From the sequence record PQ374922.1: DNA of 64,000 nucleotides. One strand, written 5' to 3'. This document shows positions 28,723 through 58,850 of this stretch, in pieces. The stretch comes from a phage. The position numbers and the translations under genes were made by a program. The notes beneath the pieces are model-generated. The model was not told the origin of the DNA. It saw nothing but the letters and a program-made list of their open reading frames with translations, and made no database searches. Every line of letters begins with the position of its first letter. Positions within the stretch are counted from its first letter, which is position 1.

Positions 28723-29472
28723 ATGTCACAAATTTATCGTATGTTCGGGTTAGAGTTTACCCCAGCTCGCCTTGATATGAAACTCCCAAATTTTGAAAAG
28801 AGTGGATTCGAAGTCGGTTGTGTTCTGGGTTTCGATCGAAACGGCAGATTCGTTCGCGAACAAAATATTTTCGATGTTCTGGGTGTGAAACCGGACAGTG
28901 AAACAGCAATCCGCTTCGAAGAGGACATCCGTTTTGGTCATTCCGACCTGTACGATTATGTCCGTGATGTGATCGCTGGTTATGAACAAGCTAAAGCACA
29001 CATGAAGATGGCCACCGATGCATGCCTGAAACTGGCGCATTGTCTATACTTCTTTGGTCGCAAGCGTCAGAATCTCGATATGGTATTCCCATCGGAACTG
29101 CTTGAACGCTTCTCTGAAACCGAATTCCTGCTGAAGCAAGCCGACGGAGTTGCTGTCAAATCTAGTGAAGTATTCAAATACCCGATAAATCTGGTGTCTG
29201 GGCATCTGCTGGTAGGGCGTGATCAGGTCGACCTGGCGATTCATCCGGATATGGAGTATGATCAGAACTCCTGTCGTGCCATCCACAACTACGTAGGTGT
29301 CATTCTAGAAAACTTGTACTCAGCCATGGAAGAAGTGATGGCAGCAGAACAACAGGAAGAAGTGATTCGTCGTATCCGCGAAGATATCGAAGGGAAGGTG
29401 AAACAGGATGTTCTAGGGGAATATCCACCAGAGTATTTCCCTGAAGTTCCAAACTTCTACTTGTCCAAATAA
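28723..29472 (+). CDS. hypothetical protein
   Basis: 249 aa; no motif assigned. Confidence 0.5.
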   Translation: MSQIYRMFGLEFTPARLDMKLPNFEKSGFEVGCVLGFDRNGRFVREQNIFDVLGVKPDSETAIRFEEDIRFGHSDLYDYVRDVIAGYEQAKAHMKMATDACLKLAHCLYFFGRKRQNLDMVFPSELLERFSETEFLLKQADGVAVKSSEVFKYPINLVSGHLLVGRDQVDLAIHPDMEYDQNSCRAIHNYVGVILENLYSAMEEVMAAEQQEEVIRRIREDIEGKVKQDVLGEYPPEYFPEVPNFYLSK

Positions 29473-29957: not shown

Positions 29958-30794
29958 ATGTCATATATTCTTCATGTGGATTCTGGAACCAAAATTGAAA
30001 TTGAAGGCAAAGACGTTGCGGCTATCCAGGCTGAAATCAAAGAAGCAGGTCTGATCATCGGAAACGTTACCCTGCGCCGTATGGTTGAAGGTGTTCTTCA
30101 GGCTGCCAACGGCTTCGAACTGATTGAAGGTCTGAGCGCTGAAGAGAAGGAAGAAACTCAGCAGGCTCTGGCGCAAGCCCAAGAGCAAGCCCAAGCTGAA
30201 GTATCGCTGAAAGTCGCTGAAACTATTGATGCTGAAGCACCGATCTCTGCCGATGCATGTGAAGCCCCAGTGTCCGACGCCCCGGTAGACGCGGTTGAAG
30301 ATGCAGTCAACGCGGCGCTGGAAGAAGGTAATCAGCCGTCCGACGCGAAAATCGGTTCCTTGGCGTCTTCTATGCTGAAAGAAGCATCGAAGGGTAAGAC
30401 CCTGACCCCGCAGGCAGCGCTGGTAGAGCGTAAACGCCGTCACACCAAACGTGAGGAAATGGTTGACTTGGCTCGCGCTTCTAATCACGGTCCGGTCTTG
30501 GCGGCGATTGAAGCTGGTGTTGTCCCCGGCGTGTTCCTGAGCTACGTGAACCCAGACATGCGTTGGTTCCAGTTCCCGGTCACCGAACTGGCTAACCCTG
30601 AAAACCTTCACGCTCGCACCAATACGTATGTCGACGTTGCGCCTATCGTTTCCGGTGGCTGGGGCTTCAGTCTGTACGTGAACGGCAAGTCCTTCACCAA
30701 ACGTCAGAAGATCAAAGAGTCTGATGCTGAGTCTCTGGTTAAGGCGATCAATGAATGGCTTCCACAGGCTCTGGCTGAAGCGAAAGCTGTGTAA
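29958..30794 (+). CDS. acidic hypothetical protein, probably abundant early protein
   Basis: Own near-consensus promoter (TTTACA-17-TATTAT) and terminator; Glu/Asp/Ala-rich central region; apparently strongly biased codon usage (judged by eye). Confidence 0.6.
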   Translation: MSYILHVDSGTKIEIEGKDVAAIQAEIKEAGLIIGNVTLRRMVEGVLQAANGFELIEGLSAEEKEETQQALAQAQEQAQAEVSLKVAETIDAEAPISADACEAPVSDAPVDAVEDAVNAALEEGNQPSDAKIGSLASSMLKEASKGKTLTPQAALVERKRRHTKREEMVDLARASNHGPVLAAIEAGVVPGVFLSYVNPDMRWFQFPVTELANPENLHARTNTYVDVAPIVSGGWGFSLYVNGKSFTKRQKIKESDAESLVKAINEWLPQALAEAKAV

Positions 30795-30823
30795 ATTTAA
30801 GTTCAGAAACTGTTCAAAAGATG

Positions 30824-30858
30824 AAGGGGCTGCTATAATAGCAGCTCCTTTTGTTTAT
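30824..30858 (+). terminator. intrinsic terminator
   Basis: 12-bp stem AAGGGGCTGCTA/TAGCAGCTCCTT followed by TTGTTTATT. Confidence 0.6.
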
Positions 30859-30869
30859 TGGAGCAGTTT

Positions 30870-31529
30870 ATGTCCTACTCCCTGAAGGGGTTGATGAAGC
30901 GCCCCGTCCACACATTCTTTAAACCACCAGTCGTAAAGGGGATCTATCCAGCACGAGGGCAAATCTACTACGTCAAAGGCTCCAATGGTAGCGGTAAATC
31001 CACTGTACCGTCTCAGCTGGCGGAGAGGGATCCTCAGGCGTATGTCGTGACCCATAACGGCAAGGTAATGCTGACTGTCTGTCCTTCGTTCAACGTGGTC
31101 TGTATCGGTAAATATGACAAGTCGAAGTCCAAGGGGGTTGATTCCCTGAAGGACACTGAGCAGATGTTGTTCGCGTTGTCTATTGCTGACCAACCAGAAT
31201 ACTTGAAATATGATGTGATTTTCGAAGGTATCATTCCATCCACATTATTGAGTTCTTGGATCCCCCGCCTGACGCGCCCACCACGTGAATTGGTTGTGCT
31301 CTTTATGGACACTCCCCTTGAAACGTGTATCTCCCGCGTTAAATCACGTAACGGTGGTGTGGAATTCAATGAAAGTCTGGTGGTCGAGAAGTGGGAGAGA
31401 GTTCATGACCATCGTCAACGACATAAAGACTTGTTCCCTACGGTAGCTGCGGGTATGATGAAGTCTCACGGCCTAACGGTAGACCAGGCTGTGATGGCAT
31501 TCCTCTGTCGTGATTTTGGGAGTATCTGA
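30870..31529 (+). CDS. P-loop kinase (candidate nucleotide or DNA-base kinase)
   Basis: Walker A YYVKGSNGSGKST, Walker-B-like DVIFEG, lid-like RVKSR; first gene of tightly coupled nucleotide-modification operon. Confidence 0.6.
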   Translation: MSYSLKGLMKRPVHTFFKPPVVKGIYPARGQIYYVKGSNGSGKSTVPSQLAERDPQAYVVTHNGKVMLTVCPSFNVVCIGKYDKSKSKGVDSLKDTEQMLFALSIADQPEYLKYDVIFEGIIPSTLLSSWIPRLTRPPRELVVLFMDTPLETCISRVKSRNGGVEFNESLVVEKWERVHDHRQRHKDLFPTVAAGMMKSHGLTVDQAVMAFLCRDFGSI

Positions 31530-32575
31530 TGGAAATCAAAGCAATTAACAACAATGACATGTTGAAGCAGGCTGTCTTGGCTATCCGTGAATTCGGGATC
31601 GAATCTGATCCTGGTAATGCTGAAATCAATACTGATAGCACCCGCTTCCTTGATGGTGTGACTATCACTGTTTCCGATATTCGTGACCGCTGGCTCTCCG
31701 TTGAAGGTCGCAACTCATCGGCTATCGCTGCCATCGGCGAGACCTTCTGGGTGTTGTCAGGTCGCAACGACATAAAGTTCCTGTCACGCGTATTGCCTCG
31801 CGCTGCTAACTTTTCGGATGATGGGGTAACATGGCGAGCTGCTTATGGTCCGCGTCTGTACGCCCATGGCCAGCTGGATAGCGTTATCAACCGCCTGCGC
31901 AAGAACCCAAACACTCGCCAGGCGTACCTCACTATTTATGATCCGGCTTTGGATTCGGATGCTGGTCTGGCGAAGTTCAGCGAGAGCGGCGAAGCGAAGA
32001 CCAAGGACATGGTGTGTAACCTGGCTCTGTTGTTCGCCATCGTTGAAGGTCGTCTGAACCTGACGGTCATCAATCGCTCACAGGATGTTCTGTGGGGGAT
32101 GAGTTCAATAAACTTCATTGAGTTCTCTATTCTTCAGGAAGTGATTGCTCGGGTGCTGGACGTTGACGTCGGTCAGTACAAGCTATTCTCTAATAATCTT
32201 CATTACTACAACAATGAAGTCAGCCAGAAGCAGCTGGGAAAGATCACGAAGGACACCAAAGTAGAAGCTGGGTTCATCAACTCCATGATTCACTTCACGA
32301 ACGTGACCAACCAGAACCATATCCGCAATCTGTTCACTGGTGTGCTTCATCACTGTGATATCGGCAGCCCGTGGGAAACTGTGGTCGCCCACCTGAAGGA
32401 ATATGATGCTGATCGTGGCCTGATTGTACAGATGGCGTACTGTCTGCACTGCAAACTGAACGAAAAGCTCATTAACCTGGACCTGATTCAGGATCATGGC
32501 TTGAACACCGCGCTCACGCATTCCCCGGTTGACCGCAAGATCATTGATCCTAAGTTCCTGGAAGGTGTAGTATGA
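31529..32575 (+). CDS. thymidylate-synthase-fold pyrimidine hydroxymethylase (dCMP/dUMP hydroxymethylase-like)
   Basis: Active-site block DMVCNLALLF...NRSQDVLWG resembles T4 gp42 dCMP hydroxymethylase (FMCTN...MRSNDVVFG, from memory) more than ThyA (PCH...QRSxD); overlaps neighbours. Confidence 0.65.
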   Translation: MEIKAINNNDMLKQAVLAIREFGIESDPGNAEINTDSTRFLDGVTITVSDIRDRWLSVEGRNSSAIAAIGETFWVLSGRNDIKFLSRVLPRAANFSDDGVTWRAAYGPRLYAHGQLDSVINRLRKNPNTRQAYLTIYDPALDSDAGLAKFSESGEAKTKDMVCNLALLFAIVEGRLNLTVINRSQDVLWGMSSINFIEFSILQEVIARVLDVDVGQYKLFSNNLHYYNNEVSQKQLGKITKDTKVEAGFINSMIHFTNVTNQNHIRNLFTGVLHHCDIGSPWETVVAHLKEYDADRGLIVQMAYCLHCKLNEKLINLDLIQDHGLNTALTHSPVDRKIIDPKFLEGVV

Positions 32576-33141
32576 TGTATCCAAATCTTGAATTCTTTAC
32601 GGGGCGCAAGCGCTCCGGTAAGGACTTCTGTTTGGAGTCCCTGATCAGTTATCACCACTTACAGGGTGATATGGACATCCAGCGCCTTTCGTTCTCGGAT
32701 GAACTGCGCCGTGTGGCCAACTACATCTACCCATGGCTCCCAGCGGAGGTAGAGGATGCCGTGAAGGACGTTCCTTACGTGCACCCTGATAACCCCAAGG
32801 GTTTAACTCCACGGCAGATCTGGCTTCATCTAGGCAGCGATACGGGCTTGCGTTACGTACAACCCGATCTGTTCCTGGCATTCTTCAAGCGCTTCCAGCT
32901 TCCTCTGGTAGAGCAGAACCCCCACGTTCATTATATCGTGAGCGATCTGCGTACCCCTCAGGAATATGAATGGGCGCTGAGTACGAAATGTCCTATCACC
33001 CGTATTTCAAAGGCCGACCGTGCTGGTATCATAGAGGACGATATAGAGGCTTTCATTGACCAAATGAAAGTGGACTACGAATTCCTCAATCCATTTGATG
33101 GTTGGGAACCGTTCGTTAAATTCTACGGAGAACGTAAATGA
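32572..33141 (+). CDS. deoxynucleoside monophosphate kinase (T4 gp1 family)
   Basis: P-loop GRKRSGKD matches T4 gp1 GVKRSGKD (from memory); 189 aa. Confidence 0.65.
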   Translation: MMYPNLEFFTGRKRSGKDFCLESLISYHHLQGDMDIQRLSFSDELRRVANYIYPWLPAEVEDAVKDVPYVHPDNPKGLTPRQIWLHLGSDTGLRYVQPDLFLAFFKRFQLPLVEQNPHVHYIVSDLRTPQEYEWALSTKCPITRISKADRAGIIEDDIEAFIDQMKVDYEFLNPFDGWEPFVKFYGERK

Positions 33142-33692
33142 TCACAGCAGGGCATATCAAAAGCCTGCTCGAACTCCAAAAGGCCACTAACGTGGCCTAC
33201 TTTGGGGAAGAGTGGAAGAATGTATGGAGTCAGAACGCAGTCATCAACTCTATCTATCGTGAGTGGGCAGAGTTCCTTGATGAAACCACCCGTGACTGGA
33301 AGGTTTATGGCAACGACATCGGGTTTGATCATACGAACGCAGTTTATGAACTGGTGGACGTGGTACACTTCATGTTGTGCTTCATCCTTGTGGACCGCAC
33401 CAAAGGTGAGATCGAAGAAGAATTTGAAGTCCTTAGTAATCGCGAATTCACCCCATCTGCTTTGGGTGTTGTAGGGCATCGCAATGTTACGTACCGCCTT
33501 GGGCAATTCATGAACGATCCTTGCGTTGAGACTCTCATGTTCTTCCTGTCGTCTGCGTGTTCTTATATGGAGATCGACATTGAGACTTACATACTGGCAC
33601 ACAAACGCAAGAACGATCGCAATCGCCTGCGTGCTGCTGGTGGCGCGGATTACGATAAGTCCGCAGAAACCCCTCTGACCCTGGAGTTCTAA
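33138..33692 (+). CDS. all-alpha dNTP pyrophosphatase (T4 gp56 dCTPase/dUTPase family)
   Basis: YELVDVVHFMLCF resembles remembered T4 gp56 ELVDIFHFVLNMF; EWAEFLDE acidic helix typical of dimeric dUTPase/MazG-like fold. Confidence 0.55.
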   Translation: MITAGHIKSLLELQKATNVAYFGEEWKNVWSQNAVINSIYREWAEFLDETTRDWKVYGNDIGFDHTNAVYELVDVVHFMLCFILVDRTKGEIEEEFEVLSNREFTPSALGVVGHRNVTYRLGQFMNDPCVETLMFFLSSACSYMEIDIETYILAHKRKNDRNRLRAAGGADYDKSAETPLTLEF

Positions 33693-34234
33693 TGTTTACA
33701 GTCGTCGTTTCATACCATGCGGAGAACGCTGCTCAGGCATCCTCCAAATTCGCCGAGCACATCATCGGCGGCGGACATAATGTATTCCTTACTGAATACA
33801 ACAGGCCTGTTAAACCGGGCGACGGTCTTTCGGCGACTGTTACGCATAAGATCGCCAGCGAGCAACCAGAGTCTCTGTTCAGGATGATCGAAGAGTATGC
33901 CGGTGGTGGCACCAAGATACCAGATGAACTGGTAGACGTCTATTTTGAAGGCTCGATCTATTACATCCACGCTATGCCAAAGGATGTAACCATTGAACAG
34001 ATGATGTATATCCTGAATATAGCACTGAACACTGCGTGCATCAACCGCACGAACTACAACAATCTGCGCAATATGTACCTAACCGACCGGCATAATGACG
34101 CATCGTCGCTTGTTGAGACAATGTCCCTGAAGAGCATCCAAGAGGCGGTTAACATTTTGTCCCAGAAGGTTATGGGTGTAGAATTATTAACGACGATCAA
34201 CAATAAAGAGGAAGTGAAATGGCCAGTTCATTAA
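33692..34234 (+). CDS. hypothetical protein
   Basis: 180 aa; last gene of the nucleotide operon before uvsX; no motif assigned. Confidence 0.5.
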   Translation: MFTVVVSYHAENAAQASSKFAEHIIGGGHNVFLTEYNRPVKPGDGLSATVTHKIASEQPESLFRMIEEYAGGGTKIPDELVDVYFEGSIYYIHAMPKDVTIEQMMYILNIALNTACINRTNYNNLRNMYLTDRHNDASSLVETMSLKSIQEAVNILSQKVMGVELLTTINNKEEVKWPVH

Positions 34235-35304
34235 TGGACCGCATGCTGAAGGTTGCTAAGAAACACGATGACCAGGCTTCAGTGCTGTCCAAATCCGACG
34301 CTCTGGAACCGTCTATCATCTGTTCTACTGGTATTCCCCTGATCGATATCGCATGGTCTGGGCGTATTGACGGCGGTCTGATCTCCGGTATCAAGATGAT
34401 GGTGGGTGATTCCCGTACCTTCAAAACGATGTTCGGTCTGGTAGACGTCAAGGCGTACATGGACAAGTTCCCTGATGCTATCTGCGTCTTTGCGGACTCA
34501 GAAAAGGGTGCCAACGCCGATTACTGGACCTCTATGGGCATTGACATGGACCGCGTCCTGTACGTACCGATCGACAACGTTGAACAGACCAAGATCCGCT
34601 TGCTGCAGATCCTACAGGAAGTCAAGAAAGGCGACCATGTTATAATCTTCATCGACTCTATCAGCCAACTTCCCTCCACCAAGGAAGTTGAAGATGCGAT
34701 CAAAGGGAACGACACTCAAGACATGACCCGCGCCCGTGCCCTTAACAGCTTCTGGCGTGTCATGACTCCCGAAATCAACAGCAAAAATCTCGTGTGTGTT
34801 TGGATCAACTCCTATTACGATGAGATCGGCAACCAGTATGCCGAGCCCAACATCAAAGGCGGCAAGCAGGGCTTCTTATCCTCCAACTTGATCTGGTTTA
34901 TCACCCGTTCTCAGGTGAAGGAAGACAAAGATCTGCTGGGCTGGAACTTCAACATAAGCATCATGAAAGGTCGCCATGTCAAAGAGAAAGCCAAGCTCCC
35001 TGTGACGGTACTGTACAACGGTGGTATTGATCGCTGGAGCGGCCTGCTTGAGATCGCTCGTGCTCTGGGTTATGTTGATATGCCGTCTTCCGGTTGGTAT
35101 GTGCGTACAGCCAAGGGTGGTTTCGATCCTGAGAAGGAAAAGAAATATCAAAAGCGTCAGATGGATGATGATTTCTGGTATCCGCTGCTGGAGAATGTCA
35201 ACTTCGCCGATGACGTGAAGAAAATGTTCGGTGTTTCTAACGGTACTGTTATGCCTGCTAACATGCTGGAGCAAATGGACCATGTTATCAACACAAGCGA
35301 ATAA
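34219..35304 (+). CDS. uvsX: RecA-like recombinase UvsX
   Basis: IPLIDIAWSGRIDGGLISGIKMMVGDSRTFKTMFGL aligns with remembered T4 UvsX IPMMNIALSGEITGGMQSGLLILAGPSKSFKSNFGL. Confidence 0.92.
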   Translation: MASSLMDRMLKVAKKHDDQASVLSKSDALEPSIICSTGIPLIDIAWSGRIDGGLISGIKMMVGDSRTFKTMFGLVDVKAYMDKFPDAICVFADSEKGANADYWTSMGIDMDRVLYVPIDNVEQTKIRLLQILQEVKKGDHVIIFIDSISQLPSTKEVEDAIKGNDTQDMTRARALNSFWRVMTPEINSKNLVCVWINSYYDEIGNQYAEPNIKGGKQGFLSSNLIWFITRSQVKEDKDLLGWNFNISIMKGRHVKEKAKLPVTVLYNGGIDRWSGLLEIARALGYVDMPSSGWYVRTAKGGFDPEKEKKYQKRQMDDDFWYPLLENVNFADDVKKMFGVSNGTVMPANMLEQMDHVINTSE

Positions 35305-49594: not shown

Positions 49595-50101
49595 TTATTT
49601 GTCAGGGTTCACTAAAACAGGGGTGGATACCAGTTCGCCGTTCTTCACAGAATGCTGGACTACAACAAACTGATCGACCATGCGATATACTTCAATTCCA
49701 GCAGCCAGCATGTCAATAATACCGTCTATGATACGATATGGTCGGTCATAGAACACTTTAGCGATCTTGCCACTGCCGATAATACGACGGGTGCACTCTG
49801 GGCATGGACTATGAGTGACAAACATCACTAGGCCACAACAGTCTTCAGTGTGCTGGGGGAGTTTGCTCAGAGCATTCTCCTCGGCGTGGATAACACCCAC
49901 CGATACCAGTTGACCGTCTACTTCCTTCTCACAGACATTAGGAGCGCCAGGAGCAGTCCCGTTCCAACCGATAGACAGGGGCTGGTCAACACGCGGGTCA
50001 ACGATAACACAGCCGACCTTCAGGCGCTGGGCATAGCTGGACAGAGCGTATGCATGAGCCGAGCGCATATGCGCAAATAACATACGGGGTTTGATAGCCA
50101 T
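49595..50101 (-). CDS. cd: dCMP deaminase
   Basis: Zinc-binding deaminase motifs HAEENAL and SPCPECTRRI; ATG at 50101 overlapping upstream stop. Confidence 0.8.
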   Translation of the reverse strand: MAIKPRMLFAHMRSAHAYALSSYAQRLKVGCVIVDPRVDQPLSIGWNGTAPGAPNVCEKEVDGQLVSVGVIHAEENALSKLPQHTEDCCGLVMFVTHSPCPECTRRIIGSGKIAKVFYDRPYRIIDGIIDMLAAGIEVYRMVDQFVVVQHSVKNGELVSTPVLVNPDK

Positions 50102-58268: not shown

Positions 58269-58850
58269 TTATAGACCAAATTTGCTACGCCACTTTTCAA
58301 CCTTGTGTTCAATAGCGTGCTCCACTTTAATGCGAGTGGCCATCAAAGAGGATCCACGGATCGCCCCTTCCCCACACCCCATGCGCGCAACATGCTTGAT
58401 TAGGTCATTGACGAGTTGATCCAATCTGTCTTGACTGCGATAAGGCTGGTTGCACAATCGGATAATCCGGCCATGATAATGATGGATAAGATTCAGATGC
58501 TTTTGAGGATCACGATCAATCAGACGGAACCAGTCTTCTTCCAACAGATTAGAAGAAATATCGTTCACTGTCGCCATGTGGTTGATGACAGAGTCGATCA
58601 TTTCGACCTTGTTCAGAGAGCCGCGCATTTGGACGTCGTCATAATCCATGACGTACAGAAGGTCAATAGCAGAGATAATGACATCAGCAACTTCGCCATT
58701 CAACGGCTCGGAAGATACTATGCCATGAAACACATCAGACAGTTCACAGATCTCTTCACCTAGTTTGTTCAGAACAAACACAGGCGAACGGTCTGGGGTA
58801 TGAGCAGTGCAGTCATAAGAAGTGTCGACGATAGTGTGTAGAAATTTCAT
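58269..58850 (-). CDS. MazG-like nucleotide pyrophosphohydrolase domain protein (putative)
   Basis: LGEEICELSDVF ... GEVADVIISAIDL fits EExxE...E..D pattern of MazG/all-alpha NTP-PPases; 193 aa. Confidence 0.45.
   Translation of the reverse strand: MKFLHTIVDTSYDCTAHTPDRSPVFVLNKLGEEICELSDVFHGIVSSEPLNGEVADVIISAIDLLYVMDYDDVQMRGSLNKVEMIDSVINHMATVNDISSNLLEEDWFRLIDRDPQKHLNLIHHYHGRIIRLCNQPYRSQDRLDQLVNDLIKHVARMGCGEGAIRGSSLMATRIKVEHAIEHKVEKWRSKFGL

Follow-up and report, generated by a model that had tools for sequence, protein, structure and literature searches.

The overlapping gene block at positions 30870-33692 of the phage record PQ374922.1 very probably encodes the nucleotide-pool half and the first DNA-level step of the thymidine hypermodification pathway known from Salmonella phage ViI. 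The window, meaning the whole stretch of 64,000 nucleotides that was analysed, derives from an Ackermannviridae phage of the subfamily Aglimvirinae. An earlier note on this DNA had proposed a hydroxymethylated or hypermodified pyrimidine on the basis of four overlapping open reading frames (ORFs) on the plus strand and a separate dCMP deaminase gene, and had left open whether the modified base is derived from hydroxymethylcytosine (hmC) or hydroxymethyluracil (hmU). Our analysis points to hmU and, by analogy with ViI, to 5-(2-aminoethoxy)methyl-deoxyuridine (5-NeOmdU) as the predicted final product in this phage. The four ORFs were recovered where the note had placed them, and the genes on which the argument is based are as follows:

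30870-31529, plus strand: ORF1, predicted 5-hydroxymethyldeoxyuridine (5-hmdU) DNA kinase, 219 aa from ATG
31529-32575, plus strand: ORF2, thymidylate synthase (TS)-fold protein, predicted dUMP hydroxymethylase, 348 aa
32572-33141, plus strand: ORF3, dNMP kinase of the T4 gp1 family, 189 aa
33138-33692, plus strand: ORF4, all-alpha NTP pyrophosphohydrolase of the T4 gp56 family, 184 aa
49595-50101, minus strand: dCMP deaminase (PF00383, E=9.4e-16; phrog_174, E=5e-53)

All sequence motifs quoted in the earlier note were found, namely GSNGSGKST at residue 37 of ORF1, MVCN at residue 161 and RSQDV at residue 183 of ORF2, GRKRSGKD at residue 11 of ORF3, and ELVDVVHF at residue 71 of ORF4. According to Pfam and PHROG profiles, the functions that it had given to the four ORFs hold at the family level. 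The gene order and identity of the block match those of ViI, where Vi01_061c (orf00067), thyA (orf00066), dnk (orf00065), the dUTPase gene (orf00063), orf00062 and uvsX follow each other as they do in the window. In gene-by-gene pairwise comparisons at the protein level, the identity between window and ViI is 88% for the kinase (over 219 aa, full length), 77% for the TS homolog, 91% for the dNMP kinase and 61% for the dUTPase, which has thus diverged furthest among them. The region is 99.7% identical to Escherichia phage YX22, 96-98% to AV101 and other E. coli or Enterobacter phages, approximately 91% to Shigella phage Ag3 and 88% to Dickeya phages of the Limestone type.

The kinase encoded by ORF1 matched the family PF18748 (HMUDK_HMUD1) with E=5.9e-109 and 362.5 bits (cutoff 27), covering profile positions 1-195 of 196, while housekeeping kinase profiles reached only E ~0.005. 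Its Walker A P-loop (GSNGSGKST, residues 37-45) is kept in ViI gp67 (YP_004327432, Vi01_061c), and both genes are located directly upstream of the TS homolog. ViI gp67 has been assayed as a 5-hmdU DNA kinase and was active on 5-hmdU DNA (Lee 2021, PMC8989533), and kinases of this type (5-HMUDK) have been reported to co-associate with dUMP hydroxymethyltransferases (PMC5889632). Judged from its sequence, ORF1 is the ortholog of ViI gp67 and would phosphorylate 5-hmdU within DNA to 5-PmdU. The earlier note had regarded this upstream P-loop kinase as a candidate post-replicative base kinase and had suggested a profile search of 30870-31529 against 5-hmU DNA kinases; the full-length match to PF18748 and the identity to the assayed ViI enzyme bear this proposal out.

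ORF2 carries the information on which base is modified. It matched the thymidylate synthase family PF00303 (E=1e-15, 58 bits, cutoff 24.3), and its best PHROG was the Ackermannviridae-specific phrog_3676 (E=4e-183), followed by the SPO1-type phrog_5131 (E=8e-59) and by phrog_160 (E=1.5e-25), the latter being the best PHROG of T4 gp42. Its identity amounts to 27-28% with the proteins of SP82G, PaSz-4 and phiMAM1, 17% with T4 gp42 and 18-22% with ThyA and td. ORF2 was aligned with the homologs of the Ackermannviridae phages ViI and phiMAM1, of the SPO1-type hmU phage SP82G and of an M6-like Pseudomonas phage. T4 gp42 and TS homologs from two more phages were included, as were td of a T-even phage and E. 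coli ThyA (the sequence of which is identical to PDB 1aob). Invariant between ORF2 and ThyA are E71 (ThyA Glu58), Y106 (Tyr94), R130, C163 (Cys146), R183, S184 and D186 (Arg166, Ser167 and Asp169), G190, H225 and Y227. Two positions separate the aligned proteins into three types:

ThyA and td: His after the catalytic Cys, Asn at the ThyA Asn177 column
T4 gp42, BF486P2 and PW916: Thr after the catalytic Cys, Asp at the ThyA Asn177 column (Asp179 in gp42)
Five hmU-clade proteins including ORF2: Asn after the catalytic Cys (Asn164 after Cys163 in ORF2), Asn at the ThyA Asn177 column (Asn195 in ORF2)

The combination of Cys-Asn and Asn is common to ORF2, SP82G, the M6-like phage, phiMAM1 and ViI. 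A canonical ThyA was rejected as an identity for ORF2: none of the NCBIfam equivalog models for ThyA, which have cutoffs of 108-427 bits, scored higher than 58 (the best one 57.8 against 327), the motif is Val-Cys-Asn in contrast to the Pro-Cys-His of ThyA, and the ThyA residues Trp80, Trp83 and His147 are missing, as is the ThyA C-terminus, in place of which ORF2 has a C-terminal extension of approximately 110 aa. Likewise rejected was a dCMP hydroxymethylase of the T4 gp42 type, because ORF2 has Asn195 and Cys-Asn but not Asp and Cys-Thr. The best solved relative of ORF2 is the CMP hydroxymethylase MilA (E=1.4e-17), which ranks ahead of any ThyA.

By signature and orthology, ORF2 is best described as a putative uracil-specific hydroxymethylase that is neither of the gp42 type nor a ThyA. 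The Cys-Asn motif, Asn195 and the placement in the dUMP hydroxymethylase clade therefore indicate a modified base that is derived from hmU and not from hmC. While the earlier note had correctly read Cys-Asn and the RSQDV block in place of the ThyA Pro-Cys-His, the resemblance to T4 dCMP hydroxymethylase that it had suggested does not extend to the diagnostic residues, and the choice between hmC and hmU, which it had considered impossible by eye, falls to hmU once the ThyA Asn177 column is read from the alignment with ThyA, gp42 and dUMP hydroxymethylases. The outcome that it had named as contrary to its proposal, a canonical ThyA next to a housekeeping nucleotide kinase, was not what we found, with the ThyA models below cutoff and the kinase matching PF18748. 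In line with this, the TS homologs of CBA120, ViI and AG3 were previously found to cluster with hmU enzymes, and CBA120 was reported to have no hmC substitution (Kutter 2011, PMC3184105). The dUMP hydroxymethylases of SPO1 and PhiW-14, which belong to the same clade as ORF2, provide a biochemical precedent (PMC8989533).

The two remaining genes of the block, together with the distant deaminase gene, are related to the nucleotide pool. ORF3 matched phrog_139 (E=1.2e-47), which also contains T4 gp1 (E=1.8e-65), and its P-loop GRKRSGKD aligns with GVKRSGKD of T4 gp1. Searches of Pfam, NCBIfam and PDB sequences with ORF3 gave no match, and NCBIfam returned nothing useful for either of the two kinases (ORF1, ORF3) or for the downstream ORF5. 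ORF4 matched the dUTPase_2 family PF08761 (E=6.4e-9, 36.7 bits, cutoff 22.9), phrog_173 (E=3e-40; T4 gp56 falls in the same family with E=6e-39) and the dimeric dUTPase of Campylobacter (1w2y, E=0.0013). In direct BLASTP comparisons, ORF3 and T4 gp1 (E=0.003) as well as ORF4 and T4 gp56 (E=0.005) were similar at the motif level only, with the P-loop recovered in the first pair and ELVD..HF in the second. The labels "gp1-like" and "gp56-like" of the earlier note are thus valid at the family level, because the T4 proteins fall in phrog_139 and phrog_173, but they do not extend to direct similarity beyond these short motifs. Judged from its context and from the precedent of the hmU phages (PMC8989533), ORF3 would convert 5-hmdUMP to 5-hmdUDP, and its profile matches mark ORF4 as a putative dUTPase that is possibly also a dTTPase. 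From the finding that CBA120 takes up no 3H-thymidine, an additional dTTPase role has been proposed for the dUTPase, and the adjacent dNMP kinase has been remarked on as well (Kutter 2011, PMC3184105). The dCMP deaminase noted at 49595-50101 is real, as evidenced by its profile matches and its intact zinc motifs (HAE and PCPEC), and it has a counterpart in ViI (Vi01_030).

The window contains a second nucleotide pyrophosphatase-like gene at 58269-58850 (minus strand), whose product matched the MazG-like phrog_1247 (E=4e-35) and gave no Pfam match. The gene has a ViI counterpart (Vi01_011), and by its family we consider its product a further candidate for the clearance of dTTP or dUTP.

Taken together, we propose the following course of events. 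The dUMP pool would be fed by ORF4, as the NTP pyrophosphatase, and by the dCMP deaminase encoded at 49595-50101. Cys163 of ORF2 would attack C6 of dUMP and, with a one-carbon unit from methylene-tetrahydrofolate, 5-hydroxymethyl-dUMP would be released and not dTMP, as suggested by signature and orthology. For a product that arises by hydration of the exocyclic methylene and not by hydride transfer, the missing ThyA residues Trp80, Trp83 and His147 and the missing closing C-terminus would be indirect support. The gp1-family kinase would then yield 5-hmdUDP and the host NDP kinase 5-hmdUTP, which would allow the phage polymerase to place 5-hmdU in the positions of T. After replication, ORF1 would phosphorylate the hydroxymethyl group in the DNA to 5-PmdU, as shown for the 88%-identical ViI gp67. 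Enzymes coded elsewhere would attach serine (aGPT-Pplase2/ADDT) and subsequently decarboxylate it (a pyridoxal phosphate (PLP) enzyme), both steps having been shown for ViI gp247 and gp226. The result would be 5-NeOmdU at part of the thymidine positions, and DNA that is shielded from many restriction enzymes. Our own analysis establishes that the genes are orthologous to those of ViI, that they follow the same order and that the active site of ORF2 bears a signature of the uracil type, while the activities of the kinase, the transferase and the decarboxylase have been shown for the ViI orthologs (PMC8989533). In ViI, CBA120, CBA6 and 1.255.O, approximately 40% of thymidine is 5-NeOmdU (Lee 2018, PMC5889632). 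PhiSboM-AG3, LIMEstone and SKML-39 are listed in the ViI group (Table 1 in PMC5889632), and the modification genes are described as conserved throughout the family (2024 review, PMC11721090).

The later enzymes fall outside of the window, which in ViI coordinates extends from the gp46/gp47 recombination-endonuclease genes to past the topoisomerase genes (approximately 5-70 kb). They were looked up gene by gene in YX22, where the counterparts of the ViI enzymes are as follows:

ViI gp160, aGPT-Pplase1: 83% identity in YX22, PF18723
ViI gp226, PLP decarboxylase: 92% identity in YX22, weak PALP match below threshold
ViI gp247, serine:DNA transferase (aGPT-Pplase2/ADDT): 90% identity in YX22, PF18724 (ADDT)
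ViI gp243, second DNA kinase: 47% identity in the kinase domain in YX22, PF18747

The transferase and the decarboxylase, which determine the adduct, are 90-92% identical to those of ViI, and 5-NeOmdU is therefore the expected product in this phage. In its kinase domain, the second DNA kinase has diverged much further than the rest of the pathway. The YX22 protein (OR776998 147435-149033; L011:1436-3034) comprises 532 aa compared to 304 aa in ViI, and its extra N-terminal region of approximately 235 aa matched the homing-endonuclease families phrog_15209 (E=7e-130) and phrog_314 (E=2e-24). ViI further encodes a QueC-like protein (Vi01_023, NC_015296 15375-16037). At the corresponding place in the YX22 gene map (OR776998, approximately 14.3-15.6 kb) there is no gene of this size, and by this gene-map comparison it may be absent from the lineage.

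Several observations weigh against the pathway as proposed. The serine:DNA transferase and PLP decarboxylase genes lie outside of the 64-kb window and were seen in the 99.7%-identical YX22 only, and the second kinase of YX22, at 47% identity to ViI gp243, bears the homing-endonuclease-like N-terminal region. We found no nucleoside analysis of any Aglimvirinae phage in the literature, the measurements having been made on ViI, CBA120, CBA6 and 1.255.O, nor did we find direct biochemical tests of the hydroxymethylase, the dNMP kinase or the NTPase of this family there. The equation of Asn195 with ThyA Asn177 is a sequence-based match that spans a one-residue loop insertion. The only rival explanation to which these points lend real weight is an hmU pathway with another end product in the Aglimvirinae lineage, where 5-NeOmdU would give way to the O-serinyl intermediate, to a different adduct or, as in SPO1, to 5-hmdU without further modification. 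The location of the transferase and decarboxylase genes, the missing nucleoside chemistry and the diverged second kinase would all be compatible with it. We nevertheless consider it unlikely, given that a change of substrate is not to be expected in a transferase and a decarboxylase that are 90% and 92% identical to the characterised ViI enzymes, and that published reviews describe the gene set as conserved family-wide (PMC11721090).

A T4-like pathway, in which ORF2 would be a dCMP hydroxymethylase producing hmC precursors and ORF4 a dCTPase, could draw on the family-level kinship of ORF3 and ORF4 with T4 gp1 and gp56 and on MilA as the best solved relative of ORF2. It is contradicted by the base-reading Asn in place of Asp, by Cys-Asn in place of Cys-Thr, by the low identity to gp42 (17%), by a phage-encoded dCMP deaminase that would drain the precursor, and by CBA120, which does not substitute hmC (Kutter 2011, PMC3184105), so that we regard it as most improbable. 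We give equally little credence to ordinary nucleotide salvage, i.e. a canonical thymidylate synthase and housekeeping nucleotide kinases acting in a phage with unmodified DNA. Many GenBank records do name these proteins "thymidylate synthase", "thymidylate kinase" or "dUTPase", but the ThyA models on ORF2 stay far below their cutoffs, His147, Trp80, Trp83 and the ThyA C-terminus are missing, ORF1 reaches 362 bits with the DNA-kinase family and only E ~0.005 with housekeeping kinases, and the orthologs are tied experimentally to modified DNA (PMC8989533, PMC5889632). A ViI-type pathway of thymidine hypermodification thus remains the explanation that we prefer by far.

The block represents the already published hydroxymethyluracil pathway of the ViI-like phages and is nothing new (Kutter 2011; Lee 2018; Lee 2021; Ag3 is named there), a fact that the earlier note had not recognised, and the window accordingly brings no new biology. 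In practical terms, the modified base would be thymine and not cytosine. The prediction for the phage DNA is 5-NeOmdU or, failing that, some other hmU derivative, from which resistance to many restriction enzymes and possibly artefacts in sequencing or cloning are to be expected.

In many database records these genes carry wrong names, the hydroxymethylase being entered as "thymidylate synthase" and the DNA kinase as "thymidylate kinase" or "terminase small subunit". The last of these names is given to the kinase in the RefSeq records NC_015296 (Vi01_061c), NC_013693, NC_049509 and NC_020083. This propagated misannotation apparently traces back to phrog_800, which bears the label; the real small terminase of ViI adjoins the large terminase (Vi01_162c). 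Other records use "thymidylate kinase", "putative kinase" or "hypothetical" for the same kinase. A different case is PW916, a Pseudoxanthomonas phage whose protein (UIS73818; L018:2312-3130) is annotated as "deoxyuridylate hydroxymethyltransferase", yet has Cys-Thr and Asp as in gp42. Going by these residues, the label, and hence the modified base inferred for that phage, may be wrong.

With respect to the layout of the block, the junctions are formed by overlaps of the types TGATG, ATGA, ATGA and TAATG, and a ribosome-binding site of the GGAG type lies ahead of each start, within the ORF upstream of it. A TTG at 30858 lengthens ORF1 when it is called mechanically, while the ATG at 30870 fits the N-terminus of the ViI ortholog (MSYSLKGL). 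The earlier note had described the four ORFs as one translational unit. Its overlaps are confirmed, but the unit does not end with ORF4, since ORF5 and uvsX continue the overlapping block. The neighbouring features are as follows:

30823-30851, plus strand: hairpin of 13 bp, GC-rich, with T-run (terminator scan), terminator-like or processing element
33692-34234, plus strand: ORF5, ACT-like phage protein (PF24021, E=1.6e-78), overlapping both neighbours
34219-35304: uvsX, overlapped by ORF5

Downstream of the block, the terminator scan detected no terminator-like site on the plus strand up to 37800. The upstream hairpin ends 19 nt before the start of ORF1 and has an RNA fold energy of -19.7 kcal/mol. 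Together with the ribosome-binding site that follows, it is base-for-base identical in ViI, whereas the proteins of the flanking genes share only 77-88% identity. The hairpin probably serves as a conserved terminator or as an RNA-processing or stability element between the upstream gene and the modification block. Directly upstream of the block, two conserved proteins are encoded at 29958-30794 and 28723-29472 (both plus strand; phrog_3905 and phrog_4253), neither of which gave a Pfam match; the protein of 29958-30794 has a low-complexity centre rich in Ala and Glu.

ORF5 starts on the stop codon of the NTPase gene (TAATG) and itself overlaps uvsX. A distribution search found it only in Ackermannviridae (270 phage records), and because of this confinement its co-occurrence with the block cannot show membership in the pathway. 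A single-sequence AlphaFold model resolved only an N-terminal beta-alpha-beta-beta-alpha-beta unit (predicted local distance difference test score 47) and was unusable for fold comparison. ORF5 is no more than a possible member of the modification pathway. Its adjacency would be consistent with an accessory or regulatory part in the supply of modified nucleotides, for example by sensing a small molecule in partnership with the NTPase or with the hydroxymethylase, or with a part in a route that turns remaining 5-hmdU into thymidine, but we consider any such role doubtful.

Among the known systems, the 5-NeOmdU pathway of ViI (a Kuttervirus) is the closest to the window, with which it shares gene order, orientation, overlapping layout and the upstream hairpin. 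The ViI set comprises gp67, the TS homolog (orf66), dnk (orf65), the dUTPase (orf63), gp160, gp226, gp243 and gp247. The differences concern the subfamily (Cvivirinae for ViI, Aglimvirinae for the window phage), the higher G+C content of the window phage, the NTPase as the most diverged component (61%) and the second kinase of YX22, with its additional N-terminal region of approximately 235 aa and its 47%-identical kinase domain.

The Bacillus hmU phages SPO1, SP82G and SP8 follow the same pre-replicative logic and, like the window, combine a dUMP hydroxymethylase, a dCMP deaminase, a dTTPase/dUTPase and a dNMP kinase. Their hydroxymethylase resembles ORF2 in the Cys-Asn and Asn signature, in its identity of 27-28% and in a C-terminal extension, and the SPO1-type phrog_5131 is the second-best family of ORF2. 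These phages stop at 5-hmdU, by which T is fully replaced (PMC5889632, PMC8989533). The hmC pathway of T4 likewise consists of a TS-fold hydroxymethylase (gp42), a gp1-family kinase and a gp56-family NTPase (dCTPase/dUTPase), but it targets cytosine, and gp42 has Asp179 and Cys-Thr where ORF2 has Asn195 and Cys-Asn. In T4 the modified base is subsequently glucosylated, while the ViI-type pathway proceeds by phosphorylation and amino-acid transfer. The Pseudomonas phages of the M6/YuA group (5-NedU) and Delftia phage PhiW-14 (alpha-putrescinylthymine) share with the window a 5-HMUDK beside the dUMP hydroxymethylase and the activation via 5-PmdU, and the M6-like TS homolog has the same signature residues as ORF2. 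Their adducts set them apart from the ViI type, as M6 uses glycine and a radical-SAM isomerase, and PhiW-14 uses putrescine.

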